The notes under the pieces were generated by a model. It ran no database searches. It saw nothing but the letters and a program-made list of their open reading frames with translations, and had not been told where the DNA came from. From NCBI GenBank assembly GCA_963704745.1, contig OY969936.1, positions 2,047,527-2,111,526 on the forward strand: a DNA stretch of 64,000 bases, given 5' to 3'. The DNA is from an uncultured Alphaproteobacteria bacterium. GTDB taxonomy: Bacteria > Pseudomonadota > Alphaproteobacteria > Rhizobiales > Beijerinckiaceae. Below, piece after piece: positions 844-59,625 of this stretch (the stretch's first letter is position 1; the number at the start of each line of letters is the position of its first letter). Position numbers and translations under genes: made by a program.

Positions 844-1152
844 TGTTATCCCCCGATTTTGGCCGGCCACGCAGATGTCGGGCCGGCAGCCCATGAGCAG
901 CAATATACTTTTCAATACAGTATCTGTGCCGATATGGCTAAGCGGGGCGGGGCGACATTAGAAAATTTTTATGACTGTTGCGCCGAAAGCACGCTCCTCC
1001 GGACGCGGAAGGCGGGCGGCCGGTTCAGCCTCGCCGAGCATGACGTCTCGACCGGCCATGAGTCCCATTCGCCTCATTCATAGCCCTGCCGGCCGGCGAG
1101 ACCGGCTCCACCTTTATCTCGTCCAGACAAAATCCCGGCGTGCTCGACGAGC

Positions 1153-1204
1153 TAGAGCATCGTTCAAGCGCAAAACCGCTCACACTTTTGCGCACGATGC
1201 TCTA
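1153..1204. repeat. MITE-like repeat copy 1 (solo 52-bp unit A)
   Basis: TAGAGCAT-cgttcaagcgcaaaaccgctcacacttttgcgcacg-ATGCTCTA, flanked by C and G; near-identical units at 2901, 14332 and 52515. Confidence 0.9.
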
Positions 1205-1359
1205 GGCTCCGTCAGCGCAAAGATTCGATCCCAACAGGGTTTCGATCTAGGATCGGGCCACCGCGATAAAGGCAGACCGGCTCTTCTGCCATGTCGTTGT
1301 CTTGGCCGAATAAAAGTCTTGTCTCATTGGCGCCGCGTGTCAGATCGATATTTTTGGAA

Positions 1360-2891: not shown

Positions 2892-2900
2892 TGCCAACTC

Positions 2901-3016
2901 TAGAGCATCGTGCGCAAAAGTGTGAGCGGTTTTGCGCTTGAACGATGCTCTAGTTTTATGAATGTAGAGCATCTTGTCCGCCTTCAAGTGATTTCACTTG
3001 AAGGCGGGATGCTCTA
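2901..3016. repeat. MITE-like repeat copy 2 (unit A + spacer + unit B)
   Basis: Two TAGAGCAT...ATGCTCTA units (2901-2952, 2965-3016) with a 12-nt spacer; unit B holds the palindrome ccgccttcaagtg/cacttgaaggcgg. Confidence 0.92.
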
Positions 3017-3063
3017 GATTTCAAAGCGGCGCGGCGCAATGTGCCATTTGGGACCGAGTGACG

Positions 3064-3295: not shown

Positions 3296-4738
3296 TCACA
3301 TATGGATCACCCGCCCATAGGCGTCGAGGACGCTCTCATGCATCATTTCCGAGAGCGTCGGATGCGGGAAGATCGTCGCGATCAGCTCTTCTTCCGTCGT
3401 CTCGCAATTCATGGCGATGACGAAACCCTGGATCAATTCGGTGACTTCGGCGCCGACCATATGGGCGCCAAGCAGCTTTCCGGTCTTGGCATCGAAGATG
3501 GTTTTCACAAGCCCGTCCGGCTCACCGAGCGCGATCGCCTTGCCATTGCCGATGAAGGGGAAGCGGCCCACCCGTAGCTCATAGCCCGCAGCTTTCGCCT
3601 TCTCCTCGGTCAAGCCGACGGAAGCGATCTGCGGATTGCAATAGGTGCAGCCGGGAATCATCAACTTATCCATCGGATGCGGATTGAGGCCCGCTATCGC
3701 CTCGACGCAGATCACACCTTCATGCTCAGCCTTATGCGCAAGCATGGGCGGGCCGGCAACATCGCCGATGGCATAGAGGCCGGAAACATTGGTGCGGCCA
3801 TGGCCGTCGATGCCGATAATGCCGTGCTCGATCTTCACGCCGAGTTCTTCGAGGCCAAGATTTTCGACATTGCCCTGCACCCCGACGGCGGAAATCATCC
3901 GCTCGGCTGAAAGCGTCTGCGTCGCGCCCTTCTCGTCGGCGAGTGTGACGACAATCCCTTGCGCCTGCTTTTCCGCCTTCGTCGCTCTGGTAGAGGTCAG
4001 GATCTTGATGCCCTGTTTCTCGAAGCGCTTGCGGGCATGGGCGGCGATCTCCGCGTCTTCGACCGGCAGGATCTGCGGCAGAAGTTCGACGATCGTCACT
4101 TCCGTGCCGAGCGTATGATAGAAGGAGGCGAATTCGACGCCGATCGCGCCGGAGCCGAGAACGATGAGGCTCTTCGGAAATTGGGGCGGCACCATCGCCT
4201 CGAAATAGGTCCAGATGAATTTCCCGTCCGGCTCGAGGCCCGGCAGAATGCGTGGCCGGGCGCCGGTGGCGACGATGATATGTTTCGCCTGATATACGCC
4301 CGGCGGAAGGATACCTTTCGGCGCCGGATGCTGGGGCTGCATCGCCTTCTTCTGCGAAGCCGTGACAGCGACTTCACCGATCTTGCTGATCTTCGCCTCG
4401 CCCCAGATCACATCGACCTTGTTCTTCTTCAAGAGAAAGCCGACGCCATTGTTCAATTGCCCGGAAACGTCGCGCGATCTTTTGACGATTGCGGCGGGAT
4501 CGAAGCCGCGTTTGCCTTCGATCGTGAGGCCGTAATCCTTCGCGTGCTGGGCATAATGATAAATTTCCGCCGAGCGCAGCAGCGCCTTGGTCGGAATGCA
4601 GCCCCAGTTGAGGCAGATGCCGCCCAAATGCTCGCGCTCGACGACGGCCGTCTTCAGGCCGAGCTGCGCAGCGCGGATCGCAGCCACATAGCCGCCCGGC
4701 CCGCCGCCGATAATGAGGATGTCGTAAGGATCAGACAT
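3296..4738 (-). CDS. lpdA: Dihydrolipoyl dehydrogenase (E3)
   Basis: MSDPYDILIIGGGPGGYVAA, GGICLNWGCIPTK disulfide motif, HPTLSE; start at ATG 4738. Confidence 0.97.
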   Translation of the reverse strand: MSDPYDILIIGGGPGGYVAAIRAAQLGLKTAVVEREHLGGICLNWGCIPTKALLRSAEIYHYAQHAKDYGLTIEGKRGFDPAAIVKRSRDVSGQLNNGVGFLLKKNKVDVIWGEAKISKIGEVAVTASQKKAMQPQHPAPKGILPPGVYQAKHIIVATGARPRILPGLEPDGKFIWTYFEAMVPPQFPKSLIVLGSGAIGVEFASFYHTLGTEVTIVELLPQILPVEDAEIAAHARKRFEKQGIKILTSTRATKAEKQAQGIVVTLADEKGATQTLSAERMISAVGVQGNVENLGLEELGVKIEHGIIGIDGHGRTNVSGLYAIGDVAGPPMLAHKAEHEGVICVEAIAGLNPHPMDKLMIPGCTYCNPQIASVGLTEEKAKAAGYELRVGRFPFIGNGKAIALGEPDGLVKTIFDAKTGKLLGAHMVGAEVTELIQGFVIAMNCETTEEELIATIFPHPTLSEMMHESVLDAYGRVIHM

Positions 4739-5165
4739 GAGGATCTCGCTCTTCCCCTCCCCCTTGTGGGGAGGGGTCAGGGGTGGGGGTTCGTTCAAAT
4801 GCAGCCGCGATCGTGTCAGGCACACTATCGATCGCCGTGATCACATCGTGATTTGAAAAGCGGAGAATGCGATAGCCTTGCAATTCGAGATAGGATGTTC
4901 GCACCGCGTCTCGTGCAATCGATGCGTCATCGCCGTGCTGATTGCCATCGACCTCGATAATCAATTTCCCAGCATGCGAACAGAAATCGGCTATATAGGA
5001 TCCTATGCAGACTTGCCGTCTAAAGTGGGTCTTTTCGAGCGGAAGCCGCCAGCGCAGAGCCTTCCAAAGCTTGCGTTCCGGCTCGGTGATCTCACGCCGC
5101 ATTGCTTTGGCGAATGCAGCCTGACGCGGCGCTATGCTCGTTCGGTCAGCTCGCTTGACGCTCAT
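4731..5165 (-). CDS. DUF559 / Vsr-like endonuclease-domain protein
   Basis: MRREITEPERKLWKAL...FRRQVCIGSYIADF...LIIEVDGNQH...RTSYLELQGYRILRFSNHDV; stop overlaps the lpdA start (ATGTCTGA). Confidence 0.88.
   Translation of the reverse strand: MSVKRADRTSIAPRQAAFAKAMRREITEPERKLWKALRWRLPLEKTHFRRQVCIGSYIADFCSHAGKLIIEVDGNQHGDDASIARDAVRTSYLELQGYRILRFSNHDVITAIDSVPDTIAAAFERTPTPDPSPQGGGEERDPHV
4752..4789. repeat. Left REP-like inverted repeat of the DUF559 cassette
   Basis: ttcccctcccccttgtggggaggggtcaggggtggggg; reverse complement of 5170-5206 with 1 mismatch over 37 nt; internal CCCCTCCCC/GGGGAGGGG hairpin. Confidence 0.92.
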
Positions 5166-5169
5166 CGAT

Positions 5170-5206
5170 CCCCACCCCTAACCCCTCCCCACAAGGGGGA
5201 GGGGAA
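5170..5206. repeat. Right REP-like inverted repeat of the DUF559 cassette
   Basis: ccccacccctaacccctccccacaagggggaggggaa, between the DUF559 ATG (5165) and the pdhC stop (5215). Confidence 0.92.
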
Positions 5207-5214
5207 AATGCGCG

Positions 5215-6525
5215 TCACACCAGCATCGCAACCGGATTTTCGATGTAGCGCTTGAAGGCGGCGATCAGCTCGGCGCCTTTGGCGCCATCCATGGCGCGAT
5301 GATCGCAGGTGATCGTCGCGCTCATCATATTGGCGATGGTGATCGCGCCGTTGCGCACGATCGGGCGCTGCTCGCCCATGCCGATCGCCAGGATCGAGGA
5401 TTGCGGCGGATTGATCACTGCGCAGAAATCCTTGATCCCATACATGCCGAGATTGGAAATCGCGCTGGTGCCGCCCTGATATTCCTCCGGCTTCAATCTG
5501 CGACCTTTGGCGCGGGCGGCGAGCTCCTTCATCGTATCGGAAATCGCCGACAAGCTCAGCGTGTCGGCTGCCCGCACGATCGGGGTGATGAGCCCGTCGG
5601 GGATAGCGACCGCGACCGCCACATCGGCGTGATGATGATGCAGCATGGAATTTTCGGTGAAGGTCACATTGGCGCCGGGAACGGCAACGAGCGCCAAGGC
5701 CAAAGCCTTGATCACCATGTCATTGACCGAGATTTTGAAGGCCGGCGTGCCGTCCTTGGCCTTGGGCGCGGCCTTGTTGACGTCTTCGCGCAGTTTCAAC
5801 AGAGCGTCGATCTCGCAATCGACGGTGAGATAGAATTGCGGGATCGCCTGATTGGCCTCGCTCAGCCGCCTTGCGATCGTCCGGCGCATATTGTCATGCG
5901 GGACTTCCGTATAGCTTCCCGGCGCGAAATAGCTCTTGATCGCCGCCTCGGCGAGCGACGGCGGCAGCATGGGCGCCGGCGTCTGCCGAAGCGCGGGCCC
6001 CGCGGCGAGCGCCGCCTTCACATCGCGTTCGATGATGCGGCCATGCGGGCCGGAGCCTGTCATCCGCGCGAGCTCAACGCCGGCATCCTTGGCGATCCGG
6101 CGCGCCAGAGGCGAAGCAAACAAAGGTTGCGCCGTTCCCGGCTTAGGCTGTGACGCAACCTGGCTCAAGCCCGGCGCTGCACGCGGCGGGGCAGCAGAAG
6201 CCGGTGGCGGCGCGGGAGCCGGCGCGGTGGGCGCTGGCACCGGCGCGCCTTTCGCCGGAGCCCTGATGCTCTTCGCATCCTCGCCTTCGCCGGCGATCAC
6301 CGCGATCACATCATTGACCGGCACGTCGGCCGTGCCTTCCGGCACGAGGATCTTGGCGAGCACGCCCTCATCGACCGCCTCGACCTCCATCGTCGCCTTG
6401 TCGGTCTCGATCTCGGCCAAAACGTCACCGGATTTTACGTGATCGCCTTCCTTCTTCAGCCATTTGGCGAGATTGCCCTTTTCCATGGTCGGCGACAGCG
6501 CGGGCATGAGGACGTTTATGGGCAT
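5215..6525 (-). CDS. pdhC: Pyruvate dehydrogenase E2, dihydrolipoamide acetyltransferase
   Basis: [17 protein letters not shown], lipoyl motif [16 protein letters not shown]3-binding domain, catalytic DHRAMDGA. Confidence 0.97.
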
Positions 6526-6578: not shown

Positions 6579-7979
6579 TCAAGATTTGTAGCAAACCGCT
6601 TTCGCCGCTGCGATCACATCGCCGACGCTCGGCAAAGCGAGCTTTTCGAGATTGGCGGCATAGGGCATGGGGACGTCGCGGCCGGTGATCCTGATCACCG
6701 GCGCGTCGAGATAATCGAAGGCCTCGTTCATCAGCCGCGCGATGATCTCCGCGCCTATGCCGCATTGCGGCCAGCCTTCCTCGATCGTGACGCAGCGGCC
6801 GGTCTTCTTCACCGAGGCGATGATCGTCGTCTCGTCCAGCGGGCGCAAGGTCCGCAGATCGATGACCTCGGCATCGATCCCTTCCTTGGCTAATTCTTCG
6901 GCAGCCTTCAGCGTATAGCTCATGCCGATGCCGAAGGAGACGAGCGTCACGTCGGCTCCTTGCCGCGCGATGCGCGCCTGGCCGATCGGCACGAGATAAT
7001 CCTCGATTTGCGGCACTTCGAATGTGTGGCCGTAGAGAATCTCGTTTTCGAGAAAGATCACCGGATTTGGATCGCGGATCGCGCTCTTCAAAAGTCCTTT
7101 GGCATCGGCCGCAGTGAAGGGCACGACGACCTTCAGCCCCGGCACATGCGAAAACCAGGCGCTGTAATCCTGGCTGTGCTGCGCGGCGACGCGGGCTGCT
7201 GCGCCATTCGGGCCGCGAAAGACGATCGGGCAGCTCATCTGGCCGCCCGACATATAATGCGTCTTGGCGGCCGAATTGATGAGCTGATCCATCGCCTGCA
7301 TGGCGAAATTGAAGGTCATGAATTCGACGATCGGCCGCAAGCCCGCCATGGCGGCGCCGATGCCGAGGCCGGCGAAGCCATGTTCGGTGATCGGCGTGTC
7401 GACGACGCGGCGAGTGCCGAATTCCTCCAACAGGCCCTGGGTGACCTTATAGGCGCCCTGATATTCGGCGACCTCCTCGCCCATCACGAAGACGCTTTCG
7501 TCGCGGCGCATCTCCTCGGCCATGGCATCGCGCAAGGCTTCGCGGACTGTCATGGGGACCATTCGCGTGCCGGCGGGCACAAGAGGCTCGGCCGCGGGCG
7601 GCGTCACCATGGGCACGACAGCGGGCGAAGGTTGCGGCGGCGCCGTCTCCGGCGCGGGCGTGACGGGCCTTGCAGGAACGGCCACGACCGATCCAGCGGA
7701 GGGCGCGGCCGCAGTCTGCGCTGCAGCGATCGGCTCGCCATCGGCTGTAATGACGCCGATCAGGCTGTTCACCGCGACATTTTCAGTGCCTTCCGGCACG
7801 ACGATCCTGGCGAGCGTGCCGTCATCGATGGCCTCGACCTCCATCGTCGCCTTGTCGGTCTCGATCTCGGCGAGCACATCGCCGGATTTGACCTTGTCGC
7901 CCTCCTTCTTCAGCCATTTGGCGAGCTTGCCCTGTTCCATCGTCGGCGACAGCGCCGGCATCAAAATATTGGTCGGCAT
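6579..7979 (-). CDS. pdhB: Pyruvate dehydrogenase E1 beta subunit with N-terminal lipoyl domain
   Basis: Lipoyl domain (ETDKAT), [37 protein letters not shown]. Confidence 0.97.
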
Positions 7980-7991
7980 GAGCGGCCCGCC

Positions 7992-9023
7992 TCAGAGCAA
8001 TACATCGGTATAAAGTTCGGATGGATCGGGTTCGGGATCATGGGTCGCGAATTCCGCGGCCTCCGCCACGATCGCGCGCACGGAGACGTCGATCTCTTTC
8101 AATGTCTCTTCATCGGTCGATTTGGTGCGGAGAAGCCGCGCCCGGACCTGCTCGATCGGATCATGTTCTTCGCGCATCTTCTGGACTTCTTCCTTGGATC
8201 GATATTTCGCCGGGTCGGACATGGAATGGCCGCGATAGCGATAGGTCTGCATTTCGAGGATGATCGGCCCCTTTCCCGCCCGGCACCACAAGGCCGCCTC
8301 GCGCGCCGCCGCCGTGACGGCGCGGACATCCATGCCGTCCACGCGTTCGCCGGGGATGTTGAAAGAGGTGCCGCGCTTCGAGAGATCGGTGACTGCCGAG
8401 GCCCGCTTCACCGATGTGCCCATCGCATAAAGGTTGTTCTCGATCACAAAGACGACCGGCAGTTTCCAGAGCTCCGCCATATTGAAGCTCTCATAGACCT
8501 GGCCCTGATTGGCCGCGCCGTCGCCGAAATAGGTGAAGGAGACATTGTCATTGCCGCGATAGCGATCGGCGAAAGCGAGCCCGGTGCCGATCGGCACTTG
8601 CGCGCCGACGATGCCGTGCCCGCCGAAGAAATTCTTGGCCCGCGAAAACATATGCATCGAGCCGCCCTTGCCTTTCGACTGGCCGCCGCGGCGTCCGGTG
8701 AGTTCCGCCATCACCGCTTTCGGGTCGATACCGCAGGCGAGCATATGGCCGTGATCGCGATAGCCGGTGATCGTCTGATCGCCCGGCTTTGCCGCCCGCA
8801 TCATGCCGACGACCACCGCCTCCTGGCCGATATAGAGATGGCAGAAGCCGCCGATGAGCCCCATGCCATACATTTGCCCGGCCTTCTCCTCGAAACGGCG
8901 GATCAGCAACATGTCCCGATAGGCGGAGAGCTCCTCTTCGAGGGTGAATTCGGCGGGTTTGGTGGCTGGGACAGGAGCTTCCGGCACGGCCGGCTTACTA
9001 GTTGGGTTTGACGCGACTGCCAT
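7992..9023 (-). CDS. pdhA: Pyruvate dehydrogenase E1 alpha subunit
   Basis: GFCHLYIGQEAV, GKGGSMHM, TPP motif GDGAANQG...ENN, YRYRGHSMSDP; start at ATG 9023. Confidence 0.97.
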   Translation of the reverse strand: MAVASNPTSKPAVPEAPVPATKPAEFTLEEELSAYRDMLLIRRFEEKAGQMYGMGLIGGFCHLYIGQEAVVVGMMRAAKPGDQTITGYRDHGHMLACGIDPKAVMAELTGRRGGQSKGKGGSMHMFSRAKNFFGGHGIVGAQVPIGTGLAFADRYRGNDNVSFTYFGDGAANQGQVYESFNMAELWKLPVVFVIENNLYAMGTSVKRASAVTDLSKRGTSFNIPGERVDGMDVRAVTAAAREAALWCRAGKGPIILEMQTYRYRGHSMSDPAKYRSKEEVQKMREEHDPIEQVRARLLRTKSTDEETLKEIDVSVRAIVAEAAEFATHDPEPDPSELYTDVLL

Positions 9024-9335
9024 TGCAAATCCCTTCCTGGATGCCGGCATAAATACTGTGGGACGACGGCAATGGCGAGCTGCCAAAGGTTGCATCGCGA
9101 CCGGCCGCTGCCGAAAACCGAAACATACCGCTTTATGGCCACTTAGCCAGGGCGGGCCAGCCGCGATCCGGCAGATTGGCGGCCCTTGCCCCGCGGCTGC
9201 CCCGGAAGACGCGCGCCGGGCGGCGAAAAGCCTATCGCGCCATGGGTTTCAGTCATGTGACACGCGCCGCTGCCGGCGAGCACCCGGCTCCGGCCTGGAA
9301 GCGCCGGGCCAGTCCATGCCGACGGCATCGGCAAG

Positions 9336-9814: not shown

Positions 9815-9955
9815 CATGCGCTTCCGCATCGCTTCGCGGCGGGAGCCCGCCGAAACTTCTCACGCCGCCGCCCCGCCGGGTGATCCCGAGCGGGGCTGAC
9901 AGCCCGGTTCAGACGTATCGCCGTCCGGCGTCGAAGGCGCCGCCGCCGCGCAGCT

Positions 9956-10033
9956 TCAGATTTCGGCCGAAGCGTAGCTCGTGACTTCCATGCCGACGCA
10001 GATTTCGCAGATTGAGGGTGTCGTCCAAGCCAT
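9956..10033 (-). CDS. pqqA: PQQ precursor peptide PqqA (25 aa)
   Basis: Hand translation MAWTTPSICEICVGMEVTSYASAEI*; GAGGAG RBS upstream; W-x2-P and E-x3-Y (EVTSY) motifs of PqqA. Below the ORF-track size cutoff. Confidence 0.92.
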   Translation of the reverse strand: MAWTTPSICEICVGMEVTSYASAEI

Positions 10034-10089
10034 GATCGTCTCCTCGGGTTGGGCACCAGACGGAAGTGCTACTCCGGTCTGGCGAGAAT

Positions 10090-10128
10090 GGCATTCGGCT
10101 GCGGCGCGAAGCGCCGATACCGAATGCC
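10090..10128. promoter_or_regulatory. Stem-loop/inverted repeat between pqqA and the sensor kinase
   Basis: ggcattcgg-ctgc-ggcgc-gaa-gcgcc-gata-ccgaatgcc: 9-bp outer and 5-bp inner stems. Function unknown. Confidence 0.45.
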
Positions 10129-10304
10129 GCTGCCTCGCTTCTATTCGAGTGAGCCGATCTTAGCCGGAATGCCGGCGGAGTGGTCAGGCGGGTGAAAGAA
10201 TAGTGTAAGATATCTGTAAGAAGGCCGCCGCGATGGCCCGGCGCGTCCAAAGCTTTGCGCGCCGCGCGCGCTCCTGTATCCTTCCCCCAAAGGACGACAG
10301 GGAG

Positions 10305-11873
10305 ATGAGCAACAGCTTTGCCGTGCGGCGCGCATTCGCCCCTGGCGGCACGGACCGGCAAGAGGGCTGGCGGGCGGTCGCGTGGTTCGCCGTGCTGCTC
10401 GCTCTGCCTTTGGCCGTGTTCGGCGTCTTCGCAGCGCTGCTGATCGATGCCGATTATGCCGTGACGCGCACCCATGAACTTGCCACGGCGACCGATCAGA
10501 TCGCCAGGCTCGACACTTTCATGCGTCAGGCGACCGAGCACCGGGCCGATGCGACGATCGCCGATGTGCGGACGGCGCTGCGCGACAACAAAGACCCTGT
10601 CGGAGCCTTGCGGCTCGCGACCTATGTGGACGAAGCGCGCTTTCTGCTCGTTCACCGCAACGATCAGCAGATCTTTCCGCCCCTCGCCGGCGCCACTTTT
10701 TCCGAACAGGAGATGCTGCGGAGATTTTCCACCGCCCTCGCCGCGGCGCGGTCCGAATTGACACCGCGAACGCGAGACAAAGCCGGGACGACGGGATTCT
10801 GGACAGCCGACAGCCTCGGGCTGTCCTTCGTCCGCTGCCTGCGCGAGCCAAACACGCTCGATATTTGCGTCGTCTTCGACGAAAGCGCCCTCGACCCCGT
10901 TCTCGAGGTCGCCCTCAATGCCGCGGCGACGAAGCTTGCCGGATGGTCCTTGACCTTGCGCGACCCGGTCGGCCGCGCCATTTGGACCCATGGCAAGTCG
11001 ACAACGAGCACAGCGGCCATTTCGGCGCTCACCGGCTCGATGGGAGGCTGGCATATGGAGGCTTCGCCACCGGCCGGCACGCATTGGGGCTTCTTGCCGC
11101 TGACGGCGATCATCGTGCCTTTGATCGGCTGCTGGCTCTTCGTCGTCTGGTACATGTATCGCAGCCAAAGGGCGCGCCTGCTCGAAAGCAATTTCCGCAG
11201 CGAGATGACGGCCAAGCTGTCGCATGATCTGCGCACGCCGATCGCGAATTTGCGCCTCTACGCGGAATTGGCCTCGCGCCGCGCCGACGACGGCCCTGCG
11301 GTGCGCCGCTATTGCGAGGTGCTGCGGGCCGAGGTCGAACGGCTCGCTTTGCTTGCCGATAATACGGTCGTCTACGGCCGCGGCTCGATGCCGCAACCGC
11401 TGCGGCTCGACGAGGCGATCCCGGACAGCGTGCTCGATGCGACGATCGAAAGATATGAAAGCCTGTTTGCCGCCACGGGATCGACGATCGAGGTGACGCA
11501 TCATGCGCCGAACCGCTGCCGTTTCGACCGGATGGGCTTCGAACGCATATTGATCAATCTCCTCGACAATGCCTGCAAATATGCGCCCGGCCGCATCAAA
11601 GTCGCGACAAAGCAGGACGGCAACAGCCTCATCCTCAGCATTCGCGATTTCGGCAATGGCTTCGACGAGGTCTTCAGAGAGAAGCTCGCCGCCCCTCACA
11701 AAGGCGCCGGCACGCAGGACGGCTATGGTCTCGGCCTTTCCGTCGTGCGCGACCTCGCCGAAGTCAATGGCGGCAAGATTGCCGTCGAAAATCTCGACCA
11801 GGGCGCCCGCGTCACCGTCTCGATGAAGACCATGGCGGCGACCCGTCCAGCGGAGGCCAAATGTCCATCCTGA
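10305..11873 (+). CDS. Membrane sensor histidine kinase
   Basis: Two TM segments around a periplasmic domain; H-box SHDLRTP, N-box NLLDNACKY, DFGNGF, GYGLGL; start at ATG 10305 after GGGAG. Confidence 0.93.
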   Translation: MSNSFAVRRAFAPGGTDRQEGWRAVAWFAVLLALPLAVFGVFAALLIDADYAVTRTHELATATDQIARLDTFMRQATEHRADATIADVRTALRDNKDPVGALRLATYVDEARFLLVHRNDQQIFPPLAGATFSEQEMLRRFSTALAAARSELTPRTRDKAGTTGFWTADSLGLSFVRCLREPNTLDICVVFDESALDPVLEVALNAAATKLAGWSLTLRDPVGRAIWTHGKSTTSTAAISALTGSMGGWHMEASPPAGTHWGFLPLTAIIVPLIGCWLFVVWYMYRSQRARLLESNFRSEMTAKLSHDLRTPIANLRLYAELASRRADDGPAVRRYCEVLRAEVERLALLADNTVVYGRGSMPQPLRLDEAIPDSVLDATIERYESLFAATGSTIEVTHHAPNRCRFDRMGFERILINLLDNACKYAPGRIKVATKQDGNSLILSIRDFGNGFDEVFREKLAAPHKGAGTQDGYGLGLSVVRDLAEVNGGKIAVENLDQGARVTVSMKTMAATRPAEAKCPS

Positions 11874-14074: not shown

Positions 14075-14268
14075 ACGCAGTCCGCGCCTGCCTAGGCTTG
14101 CCGCGCGGATCGCAGGCTTATGGGAAAGCCACCCCGCCTCTGTCAACCCCTGTCACCGGCAAAGCGTGACGGCGGGCACCTTGCCGATGGTCCGCCATGT
14201 GGCTGTCTGATAAGGACTTGGCCGAAAGCGCCGCCCGGCGCGCGCTTGCCGCTGCCGCTGAGCCTCGC

Positions 14269-14383
14269 TAGAGCATCCCGCCTTCAAGTGGAATCACTTG
14301 AGGGCGGATAAGATGCTCTAGATTCAAAAAATAGAGCATCGTTTAAGCGCAAAACCGCATACACTTTTGCGCACGATGCTCTA
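14269..14383. repeat. MITE-like repeat copy 3 (unit B + unit A)
   Basis: TAGAGCAT...ATGCTCTA units at 14269-14320 and 14332-14383; almost identical to 52452-52566. Confidence 0.92.
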
Positions 14384-14393
14384 GATTTGCGCA

Positions 14394-18655: not shown

Positions 18656-18937
18656 ATCTATTTCGACCTCTGGTATCCGATCATCTTGGCGCTCGCGACC
18701 TTCATGATCGGCCTAGAGCATCCCGCTTTCAAATAGAATCATTTGAAAGCGGATAAGATGCTCTAGATTTAAAGAAGTAGAGCATCGGATCATCAAATCA
18801 AATCGGGCCTGCCCGATTTGATCATTCAAAAGCTGATCTCGGCAACAGCCGAGATCAGTACCGCTCACACTTTTGGGTCCGATGCTCTGGTGTTCATTCC
18901 TGAGACCAAGGATCGCGATATTCATGCCAATGCCTGA
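18656..18937 (+). pseudogene. 3'-terminal remnant of a paralogous MFS gene, interrupted by repeat copy 4
   Basis: Removing the repeat gives IYFDLWYPIILALATFMIGL|VFIPETKDRDIHANA*, aligning to the upstream MFS end IYSGLWYPIVVAAMSFVVGLLFLPETKDRDITHI*. Confidence 0.85.
18714..18889. repeat. MITE-like repeat copy 4 with nested double hairpin
   Basis: Unit B 18714-18765; unit A 18778-18889 expanded by hairpins atcaaatcgggc/gcccgatttgat (18797-18822) and ctgatctcggc/gccgagatcag (18833-18858). Confidence 0.9.
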
Positions 18938-52032: not shown

Positions 52033-52451
52033 GGTGGAGTCTCCTTGGGTCCTAGAGAGGCGCGTATAATGGGCAATGCTTGGCAAAGCGCCAGAAGCCG
52101 CAACTCGGCTCGATGAGGAGGAGAAAGGTCTCATTGCTAATGACACCCCTGGCGCTGAGCAGAACGCCACTATCATCAACGCGCCCGGCCCTTTACAAGC
52201 TGATCATGACGAGCCGAAAGCCGCAAGCCAAGCGCGCCGGATTTACAAAAAGACAGCGCGCCGCAAGGCCCGACTCGGCCGCGCCGCACCGCACTATAAG
52301 GGCTTCGGCGCCCGCGGCGCGTTTCTTGCGTCTTGCAGAGACGAGGATTTGCTGCGCGGCCCGATTATTCTCATCGATCGGGCGTGATCGCTCGCTTTGA
52401 GCGTGACGTTGGCGCATGCCGGTCCGCATTTCGGACCCGAGCCAGGGACCC

Positions 52452-52566
52452 TAGAGCATCCCGCCTTCAAGTGGAATCACTTGAGGGCGGATAAGATGCT
52501 CTAGATTTAAAAAATAGAGCATCGTTCAAGCGCAAAACCGCATACACTTTTGCGCGCGATGCTCTA
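52452..52566. repeat. MITE-like repeat copy 5
   Basis: Unit B 52452-52503 plus unit A 52515-52566, C/G flanked; nearly identical to copy 3. Confidence 0.92.
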
Positions 52567-52580
52567 GGGAGCTGGAAACC

Positions 52581-54077: not shown

Positions 54078-54111
54078 GATCGGAAACCGGCTCCCGTGAC
54101 AGCGCCGTGCC

Positions 54112-54228
54112 TAGAGCATCCCGCTTTCAAATGGAATCATTTGAAAGCGGATAAGATGCTCTAGATTTAAAAAAGTAGAGCATCGGATTATCCCAAAACC
54201 GGTATCCACTTTTGGGTCCGATGCTCTA
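54112..54228. repeat. MITE-like repeat copy 6
   Basis: Unit B 54112-54163 plus unit A 54177-54228 (cggattatcccaaaaccggtatccacttttgggtccg variant). Confidence 0.92.
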
Positions 54229-59248: not shown

Positions 59249-59535
59249 GCCGCTCTCGCTTATCGCCGCGTGCACAAGCCGATATTGAAGAGATCTGGGA
59301 TTACACCGCAGCCCGTTGGGGGCTCGATCAAGCCGAGATTTATCTTCGGCAAATTATGGCGGCGATCGAAACTGTCGCTGCCGCCCCAAACCGCGGCCGA
59401 TCTTGCGCCGACGTGCGCGCCGGCTATTGGAAATACCCAGTAGGCTCGCACACCCTGTTTTATCGGAACACTACAAATGGCGTCGAAATCATGCGCATCC
59501 TGCATATGCGCATGGACTTCGGCCGTCACCTTTAG
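59245..59535 (+). CDS. parE: ParE-family toxin
   Basis: LSPRAQADIEEIWDYT..RWG..QAEIY...GRSC..VRAGYWKYPVGSHTLFY...EIMRILHMRMD; ATGA overlap; stop TAG is the first triplet of repeat copy 8. Confidence 0.93.
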   Translation: MSRSRLSPRAQADIEEIWDYTAARWGLDQAEIYLRQIMAAIETVAAAPNRGRSCADVRAGYWKYPVGSHTLFYRNTTNGVEIMRILHMRMDFGRHL

Positions 59536-59625
59536 AGCATCGGACCCAAAAGTGTGAACCGGTTTTGGGATAATCCGATGCTCAAACAAAAGGCTGCCAA
59601 TTCTATTTGAACGCACGCCGTTCTA
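59533..59625. repeat. MITE-like repeat copy 8 (unit A + truncated unit B, reverse orientation)
   Basis: TAGAGCATcggacccaaaagtgtgaaccggttttgggataatccgATGCTC, then attctatttgaa (reverse of the ttcaaatagaat unit B core), ending CGTTCTAG. Confidence 0.85.

Follow-up and report, generated by a model that had tools for sequence, protein, structure and literature searches.

What a small nuclease gene enclosed by inverted repeats is doing between two genes of a pyruvate dehydrogenase (PDH) operon is the question raised by the stretch of DNA analysed here, 64,000 nt of contig OY969936.1 from an uncultured alphaproteobacterium of the family Beijerinckiaceae (hereafter the window). Two repeats, referred to below as arms, flank a DUF559 gene between pdhC and lpdA, with the arms and the DNA between them forming a cassette that the first-pass annotation had read as a candidate minimal mobile element. 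The cassette is one copy of a widespread and, it appears, undescribed alphaproteobacterial system that combines a repeat with a nuclease. By analogy, such a system would resemble the partnership between REPINs (doublets of repetitive extragenic palindromic, or REP, sequences) and RAYTs (REP-associated tyrosine transposases), run by a different nuclease and working like a REPtron without being one, an interpretation that we judge to be evenly balanced between right and wrong. What we rate as new here is a REPtron-type repeat-nuclease partnership with an unrelated enzyme and a stop-less gene embedded in an operon.

Anatomy of the cassette

The two arms, each 37 nt in length, are reverse complements at 36 of 37 positions (97%) and lie 381 nt apart, with the single mismatch (TCA versus TTA) located in the spacer, and with zero such matches expected by chance as judged from 100 shuffles. 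Both follow one design, a 9-bp C/G hairpin and then a G4-T-G4 run, and exactly two copies are present in the window, both at the DUF559 gene. The cassette encloses exactly one gene and leaves only 8 nt and 13 nt of the 476-nt pdhC-lpdA gap free at its two ends. The open reading frame (ORF) of this gene crosses the downstream arm, which gives the protein the arm-encoded tail TPTPDPSPQGGGE, the TGA spacer of that arm being out of the DUF559 reading frame. The cassette itself contains no stop codon, with the ORF ending 8 nt inside lpdA; the downstream arm is followed by 13 nt and then by ATGTCTGA, in which ATG is the start of lpdA and TGA the stop of DUF559. Near-perfect reverse-complementary arms that each carry a hairpin, a single enclosed gene filling the gap, and an ORF that reads through the left repeat to stop over the lpdA start had all been reported from the first reading of the sequence, and all hold at the coordinates listed in Table 1.

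No promoter- or terminator-like sites were found at the arms or within the cassette by sequence scan and, as it lies between co-transcribed genes, the cassette would be transcribed by read-through. Its anatomy points to such read-through transcription together with translational coupling to lpdA, since a host-supplied stop that overlaps the next start can hand ribosomes on to that gene. The final G-tract of the upstream arm doubles as the likely ribosome-binding purine run of the DUF559 gene. Searches of Rfam gave only weak matches around the cassette, far under the gathering scores, with two tRNAs the only matches at the gathering threshold in the whole window, and a search of sequencing runs matched the cassette sequence in metagenome DNA runs only.

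Distribution, boundaries and history of the unit

A scan in which each species was represented by a single genome gave 80 loci, spread over Hyphomicrobiales; with earlier loci and the window included, the set analysed comprised 82, 46 of them with the order pdhC-DUF559-lpdA and 36 located elsewhere. Both arms are present at 39 of the 82 loci (20 PDH and 19 other) and a single arm at 27, with the enrichment of flanking inverted repeats among DUF559 relatives, which the first-pass annotation had set as a test of its proposal, thus proving strongly positive. Across 1.36 Mb around the homologues, 139 of 184 hairpins of the arm type lie at a DUF559 gene. All 26 homologues compared, with identities down to 52%, end in the unvarying tail TPTPxPSPQGGGE, a translation of the downstream arm, and the odd C-terminal tails of this form in annotated genes are translated repeat DNA. 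The DUF559 stop falls 5-76 nt past the outer end of the downstream arm in every case, and is therefore supplied by host DNA, with the distance from arm end to stop fixed at 23 nt in the window and in L001, L002, L005, L006, and L007.

The same layout is found outside Hyphomicrobiales in Sphingomonas and Azospirillum, giving three orders in all. In Sphingomonas parapaucimobilis, a cassette between sufB and sufC has arms of the form CCCCTCCCC-TTCA-GGGGAGGGG-CC-GGGGGTGGGG and the tail APHPNPSPEGEG, and the three paralogues of this one genome share 45-48% mutual identity and carry a different arm variant each (Table 1). Every DUF559 lineage has its own repeat variant. Most of the loci examined have the cassette within an operon, flanked by two co-directional genes that often encode subunits of a single complex, as with the pheS/pheT cassettes of Bradyrhizobium, Pseudolabrys, Astrobacterium, and their relatives, the ends of which overlap the pheT start by 4 nt; for Nitrobacter (L073), the pheS/pheT-like gene sizes and order are those given by ORF prediction. 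Further junctions fall between the genes for the solute-binding protein and permease of ATP-binding cassette (ABC) transporters. The locus L008/L212 is an exception, adjoining a divergently transcribed gene, and at several other non-PDH loci ORF-based calls put a neighbour on the other strand or at a distance of several hundred nt.

A DUF559 gene with its own stop codon was observed in Sinorhizobium sp. M103 (L213 6001-6560, on a 3.5-Mb replicon). Behind it lies a doublet that faces outward and belongs to a different repeat type, ATCTCCCCC-ACAA-GGGGGAGAT plus a C-rich stretch, and DUF559 genes may therefore be linked to other repeat families as well.

The boundaries of the unit are sharp. Alignment of L008, an unrelated locus, with four PDH copies shows homology extending exactly from TTCCCCTCCCC to GGGGAGGGGAA and none beyond, with the L008 protein nesting in the Methylovirgula PDH clade of the DUF559 tree. 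Contigs from the source metagenomes likewise stack on the arms, diverging at 4752 and at 5203-5207, and they cover the arms 3-8 times as deeply as the flanks, although these contigs possibly derive from other organisms. Because the fusion of gene and arm is conserved and movement is arm-to-arm, gene and arms travel as one unit. No target-site duplication is present in the flanks of the five aligned copies or in the arm listings, in agreement with what had been noted for the window, and the flanks of filled and empty PDH junctions are too divergent for a duplication or a precise-excision footprint to be inferred.

Both components of the unit are constrained. The arms are identical in the five aligned copies despite synonymous divergence (dS) of 0.7-1.7 in the DUF559 ORF, the ratio of nonsynonymous to synonymous divergence (dN/dS) of which is 0.11-0.20, and the non-coding upstream arm is more conserved than the silent sites of the gene; with the arms unchanged, dN/dS low, and synonymous sites saturated, it follows that protein and arms are both under constraint. 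The arms also vary in concert. In 38 of the 39 two-armed cassettes, the base at the centre of the inner run in one arm is the complement of that in the other, 33 of these being T/A and five A/T, with the A/T version found in Xanthobacteraceae, Pseudolabrys, and Astrobacterium. In arms of the Bradyrhizobium type, a wobble in the stem is mirrored, lying on opposite strands at the two ends.

In other genomes, arms without the gene are abundant and far outnumber those beside it. A search of metagenome contigs by the arm only, and hence unbiased as to DUF559, returned 138 arms, 12 of which lie at a DUF559 gene, 54 in gene-less doublets, 63 in a solo or other class, and nine at contig ends. The gene-less inverted doublets have 5-160 nt between their arms and typically span ~100 bp overall, and such doublets are also found near cassettes in genome loci. 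DUF559 is the sole nuclease-type family recurring within 250 nt of the arms (10 loci), with the other recurrent neighbours comprising three of housekeeping type, an ABC transporter ATPase, an HrpB helicase, and a flavin adenine dinucleotide (FAD) oxidase, and four clusters without a Pfam match, the last being probably spurious reading frames. No transposase was found among the ORFs within 250 nt of the arms. An origin of the doublets as internal deletions of the cassette was considered and rejected, as doublets and cassette of the same genome share at most ~20 nt of homology beyond the arm, and the sequences inside the doublets show no relation to the gene.

The solo or other class includes outward-facing pairs within larger mosaic palindromes. 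Outward-facing pairs spaced exactly 103 nt from start to start were observed at L092 560-720, L096 6480-6630, L119 12200-12350, L128 4950-5100, and L150 10550-10700, with those of L092 and L119 embedded in a larger palindrome (cagggctatcgcatatgacg...), and these are mosaics of the same arm. At L174 3333-6533, a long frame with FAD-oxidase domains includes the repeat-encoded stretches ..PPPLWGRDRVGG.. and ..PPPLTPPHKGEGN.., and may represent a doublet in frame inside a gene, or one between two genes merged by a stop-to-stop ORF.

At the PDH site itself, the copies group by taxonomy in the DUF559 tree (Methylobacterium, Bosea, Rhizobiaceae/Phyllobacteriaceae, and Beijerinckiaceae), and the pairwise identities of DUF559 and LpdA are correlated (r = 0.63, 820 pairs), with DUF559 diverging faster. 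As the tree follows taxonomy and the gene co-diverges with lpdA, the PDH copy is an old resident with mostly vertical descent. To judge from the sequences, the window copy would be best explained by this descent, interrupted now and then by loss or by a move of the whole arm-to-arm unit. Relatives do contain the empty pdhC-lpdA sites for which the first-pass annotation had proposed to look, with clean short gaps lacking the cassette in Beijerinckia indica and Methylocapsa polymorpha. In addition, a 265-nt contig from a sister metagenome, a single contig of low depth, bridges window positions 4726 and 5215 by 24 nt, and at 91.5% identity to the 3' end of pdhC it lies within the range of cassette-bearing Methylovirgula (87-96%).

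The genome that holds L008 has a PDH junction without the cassette, at which one degenerate hairpin with the outer termini of the cassette is found, TTCCCCTCgcgACAAGtGGGAGGGGAA (L206 2885-3000). As each hairpin is palindromic, the two hairpins of a cassette are also direct repeats, and recombination between them would delete the cassette and leave a solo hairpin such as that in L206, which could alternatively be the ancestral target. Truncated DUF559 genes at the PDH site, in L027 10001-10446 (107 codons, both arms) and L079 10001-10420 (83 codons, upstream arm), show the gene decayed and the repeat retained. Methylobacterium has kept the ORF, with decayed or rearranged arms, and a whole gene-less doublet often separates pdhC from the gene.

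The proposal of a minimal mobile element thus stands in so far as a sharp arm-to-arm unit occurs at a second locus and gene-less derivatives exist, and falls short in so far as the PDH copy is an old resident whose divergence runs parallel to that of lpdA in several families. Fixation of the gene at this locus, which had been named as a result that would speak against mobility, is borne out as old residence across several families and contradicted by a patchy occurrence with empty sites. In comparison with known systems, the window copy is best seen as a low-copy, mostly vertical gene member of a repeat system, similar in this to a RAYT, and not as a freely hopping minimal transposon.

The nuclease, its arms and competing explanations

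The DUF559 protein matches PF04480 over residues 15-122 with 110.1 bits against a cut-off of 20.6 (E=6.3e-32), and matches PDB entry 3HRL with E=2e-15. Its relatives are currently annotated as 'very-short-patch-repair endonuclease' or 'endonuclease domain-containing protein'. Across 26 homologues, residues E30, D60, D73, and D86 never vary and H77 hardly does, with the spacings D60-H77 (17) and H77-D86 (9) equal to those of D196-H213-D222 in I-Bth0305I. Comparison of the family profile with 3R3P (E=9e-5) places D60, D73, H77, and D86 on D196, N208, H213, and D222, and these correspond to the EDxHD active-site residues described for I-Bth0305I (PMC3239194), with E30 completing the set here. An AlphaFold2 model (mean predicted local distance difference test score, pLDDT, of 74.7) has a disordered arm-encoded tail and in structure comes closest to 3HRL, a DUF559 protein from Neisseria, followed by the catalytic domain of I-Bth0305I (3R3P, template modelling score 0.75 on the target), with PvuRts1I and Vsr giving weaker matches.

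Pfam scanning detects only the DUF559 and MTES_1575 domains, with ~25 residues before the core. Neither the DUF559 protein nor the arm neighbours matched Y1_Tnp (HUH-Y1), DDE, or serine/tyrosine recombinase profiles, consistent with the earlier statement that DUF559 is neither a DDE transposase nor a RAYT. As for a role in anti-phage defence, PADLOC returned marginal matches only.

Whether DUF559 is the enzyme that acts on the arm repeats is, in our assessment, a matter on which the chances are about equal. In the mechanism proposed, the nuclease would recognise the structured repeat as a hairpin, cruciform, or G-quadruplex, and would nick or cut it, with repair or replication then copying repeat-bounded units; a PD-(D/E)XK-type nuclease would here take the place of the HUH tyrosine transposase. 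Each arm holds four G-tracts (GGGGAGGGG-TTA-GGGGTGGGG) on the inward-reading strand (sense in the 5' arm, antisense in the 3' arm). G-quadruplex and hairpin compete for the GGGGAGGGG tract, with the quadruplex favoured at -41 to -45 kcal/mol versus -11 to -26 kcal/mol for the hairpin when computed with the G-quadruplex option of ViennaRNA, the parameters of which are rough. The predicted arm structures suggest possible substrates for a small nuclease without a DNA-binding domain, and also possible ways to silence a risky nuclease. A view of the arms as a plain RNA device is disfavoured, with their mirrored symmetry and gene-less copies pointing to a role at the DNA level.

Several observations weigh against a repeat-copying role for the nuclease. 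Near-identical copies, as expected of recent movement, were not found, the paralogues being old; no gene-less copy is present in the 64 kb of this genome; and the flanks examined contain neither a target-site duplication nor another transposition signature. The persistence of the ORF in the Methylobacterium clade while the arms decay or rearrange indicates that the protein may function there independently of the arms, and Caulobacter VsrA is a cellular, DNA-damage-inducible nuclease tied to cytosine methylation (PMC12907096). The protein, with 144 residues, has no obvious separate DNA-binding domain. What the sequences show is the anatomy and boundaries of the cassette, its distribution and conservation, the gene-less derivatives and empty sites, and the intact catalytic residues; that DUF559 binds or cuts the arms, and that this drives their copying, we infer.

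Of the other explanations, one that we consider unlikely is that of a free-standing homing endonuclease gene ('intronless homing'), whereby the DUF559 nuclease cuts the cassette-free operon junction and repair after DNA transfer installs the cassette there, the arms being accessory (controlling expression or providing recombination-prone ends) and not the substrate. The nearest characterised relative in both structure and profile is indeed the EDxHD homing endonuclease I-Bth0305I (PMC3239194), and PADLOC returns a weak homing-endonuclease match. The cassettes also lie between conserved co-directional genes (pdhC/lpdA, pheS/pheT, sufB/sufC, pntAA/pntAB, and ABC transporter genes), one junction is occupied across many families with clean empty sites in close relatives, and the G+C content of the ORF is under that of its neighbours (54% in the core, 4789-5165, versus 60-64% in lpdA and pdhC, with 58% in the whole window). 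However, homing leaves unexplained why the arms are more conserved than the gene, why they co-vary, and why gene-less doublets are abundant, and the way in which DUF559 divergence tracks that of lpdA fits residence better than repeated invasion. Furthermore, the NUMOD and helix-turn-helix (HTH) DNA-binding modules of I-Bth0305I are absent from the protein in the Pfam scan, and viral contigs contained no relatives, which gives no support for a phage vehicle.

It is likewise improbable, in our view, that this is an ordinary cellular nuclease gene, serving in Vsr-like repair or the response to DNA damage, that became embedded in a REP-like family spread by other means, with the arms acting on RNA so as to limit nuclease expression, shape pdh mRNA processing, and couple lpdA translation. 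The DUF559 protein VsrA of Caulobacter has a cellular phenotype, being induced by DNA damage and causing damage when the solitary cytosine methyltransferase is absent (PMC12907096), and DUF559 proteins can therefore be active, potentially harmful cellular nucleases. A host function would suit an ORF that shows purifying selection and persists at sites with decayed arms, and a predicted fold of the cassette RNA, in which the arms pair as a ~39-bp duplex enclosing the ORF and its ribosome-binding site and burying the purine run before the ATG (z = -8.6), would suit an action on RNA, as would the conserved stop/start overlap with lpdA. That most metagenome arms are not beside DUF559 also agrees with spread by other means, but no other candidate mobilising gene recurs with the arms, the fixed-frame read-through of the arm by the ORF is conserved from Hyphomicrobiales to Sphingomonas, and movement is arm-to-arm. 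The mirrored stem wobble of the Bradyrhizobium-type arms, moreover, fits a symmetry of DNA better than an RNA element on one strand, and no cytosine methyltransferase is present among the neighbours of L001 and L002 (PDH genes, ChaB, a lipoyl synthase-like gene, and others), a linkage that is likewise absent for Caulobacter VsrA (PMC12907096), so that its absence here is not decisive.

Chance juxtaposition of an unrelated small gene and two copies of an abundant repeat, for which the mostly gene-less arms of other genomes would speak, is scarcely credible when the only two arm copies in 64 kb are both at the gene and the arrangement recurs at dozens of loci in three orders, and is refuted by the invariant arm-encoded tail, the recurring two-armed loci, and the arm-to-arm homology of L008; of the earlier concern that abundant repeats flank the gene by chance, the abundance stands and the chance does not. 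The homing and host-gene explanations and the proposed partnership of nuclease and repeat are not mutually exclusive for different steps.

The proposed partnership most closely recalls REPIN/RAYT systems, in which the transposase gene is single-copy, vertically inherited, and flanked by inverted hairpin repeats that populate the genome as gene-less doublets (PMC3116915, PMC5581495). In common with REPtrons (PMC3116915, PMC3337134, PMC5581495), the cassette has a small nuclease-type gene between hairpin repeats in inverted orientation, and the gene is low-copy and largely vertical, with gene lineages pairing with their own repeat variants. Dispersal of the repeat as gene-less doublets and singles is seen in relatives and metagenomes, the window having no further copy in its 64 kb. 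The enzyme here, however, is of the EDxHD/Vsr type within the PD-(D/E)XK superfamily and not HUH-Y1, which is the defining feature of those systems. The repeat differs as well, being a C/G-tract hairpin and G-run with quadruplex potential and without the GTAG tetranucleotide, and the ORF crosses one repeat and has no stop of its own, with the cassette lying inside operons.

I-Bth0305I (PDB 3R3P; PMC3239194) and the free-standing homing genes of phages share the catalytic fold and active-site residues, and also the position between conserved genes with patchy occurrence and clean empty sites. They differ in that the DUF559 gene is intergenic and chromosomal, without an intron, intein, or NUMOD/HTH modules, and is bounded by inverted repeats that also occur gene-less. 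Miniature inverted-repeat transposable elements (MITEs) and their parent insertion sequences resemble the cassette in their terminal inverted repeats (here ~37 bp), sharp boundaries, and short gene-less derivatives with shared termini, whereas the cassette has no target-site duplication, no DDE, HUH, or serine/tyrosine recombinase, no near-identical copies, and a coding member of just 455 bp. To our knowledge, no Vsr gene is flanked by repeats. Vsr and Caulobacter VsrA (PMC12907096) belong to the same nuclease superfamily, with VsrA having a DUF559 domain, although Vsr is a much weaker structural match and no cytosine methyltransferase is linked here. In the searched literature on DUF559 no link to repeats or mobility was found, and searches combining Vsr-like or very-short-patch terms with MITEs or inverted repeats found nothing.

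A possibly related repeat in E. coli and other features of the window

A possible counterpart exists at a single locus of E. coli, examined after the idea had arisen. The DUF559 gene ycjD follows sapF in the same orientation (L214, K-12 NC_000913.3 1346000-1354000; 5195-5440, 5408-5761), and its ORF ends ...RRSPSP* within a hairpin, a degenerate form of CCCTCTCCC. Some 150 nt further downstream, CCCCTCGCCCCTCTGGGGAGAGGGTTAGGGTGAGGGG by eye has the hairpin, TTA, and G-run architecture of the arms, and between the hairpin and this G-rich repeat the final ~45 nt of ycjD are present a second time in degenerate form. The 56-nt CCCCTCGCCCCTCTGGGGAGAGGGTTAGGGTGAGGGG unit is found in all 5,426 complete E. 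coli genomes, the median number of places being 18, and belongs to a dispersed repeat that we take to be the 'Box C' family. Unlike the cassettes, the ycjD locus has a repeat of different sequence and no intact arm upstream.

Taken with the alphaproteobacterial loci, this leads us to the tentative and rather doubtful suggestion that DUF559 nucleases are the partners of a second, RAYT-independent class of palindromic repeat (a G-rich hairpin with a G-run, including the E. coli repeats by ycjD). Each lineage would maintain and spread its own variant by cutting the hairpin, cruciform, or G-quadruplex form, with the gene surviving stop-less and coupled inside operons for essential complexes, where deletion would be costly. 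Few non-coding features of bacterial genomes are as common as REP-type repeats, and we know of no enzyme family other than RAYTs tied to them so far. A second, unrelated nuclease family with its own repeats, if real, would mean that this lifestyle evolved more than once, would give a testable role to DUF559, a large family of otherwise uncharacterised function, and would suggest an origin for G-rich palindromic repeats, possibly including the E. coli family. Were the E. coli association real, the hypothesis could be tested directly in E. coli K-12. The design of the cassette, promoter-, terminator-, and stop-less between genes of an essential complex, would be a compact example of a selfish gene that is hard to lose.

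The coordinates of the cassette, its neighbours in the PDH operon, and comparable loci are collected in Table 1. For pdhC, ORF prediction gives a product of 516 aa, but the real start is placed at 6525.

Table 1. Positions of the cassette, the adjoining PDH genes, and further repeats (window coordinates, unless a locus is given)
Feature	Position	Strand	Basis or remark
lpdA (E3), downstream neighbour	3296-4738	minus	profile/ORF; start codon ATG 4738-4736
DUF559 gene, 144 aa, EDxHD/Vsr-type nuclease	4731-5165	minus	PF04480, E=6e-32
pdhC (E2), upstream neighbour	5215-6525	minus	stop codon 8 nt ahead of cassette
pdhB	6579-7979	minus	PDH operon
pdhA	7992-9095	minus	PDH operon
Whole cassette, 455 bp, outer arm end to outer arm end	4752-5206	minus	alignment with paralogue L008; metagenome contigs
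Upstream (5') arm	5170-5206	minus	sense: TT, CCCCTCCCC, CTTGT, GGGGAGGGG, TTA, GGGGTGGGG; 4 nt to ATG
9-bp hairpin in upstream arm	5182-5204	minus	inverted-repeat search
Upstream G-quadruplex motif GGGGAGGGGTTAGGGGTGGGG, four G-tracts	5170-5190	minus	sense strand
Downstream (3') arm, within ORF	4752-4788	minus	sense: CCCCACCCC, TGA, CCCCTCCCC, ACAAG, GGGGAGGGG, AA; encodes PTPDPSPQGGGE
9-bp hairpin in downstream arm	4754-4776		CCCCTCCCC-5 nt-GGGGAGGGG
Downstream G-quadruplex motif, mirror of upstream motif	4768-4788	plus	antisense strand
ATGTCTGA, DUF559 stop over lpdA start	4731-4738	minus	stop TGA 4731-4733, from DNA outside cassette
Sphingomonas parapaucimobilis cassette, sufB/sufC	L215 1444-1890		one genome
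Sphingomonas parapaucimobilis cassette, pntAA/pntAB	L219 1400-1884		same genome
Sphingomonas parapaucimobilis cassette, between gatB/yqeY and dnaG	L216 1321-2000		same genome
pheS/pheT cassettes	L050, L067, L073, L075, L080, L083, around 9950-10420		
Second palindromic family in window	1152-1205, 2895-3018, 14266-14389, 18711-18894, 52449-52568, 54109-54228, 59533-59583		

A second palindromic family, far more abundant in the window than the arms and apparently the main REP-like one of this genome, consists of units bounded by CTAGAGCATC...GATGCTCTAG, 54-117 nt long, at no fewer than seven sites across the 64 kb.

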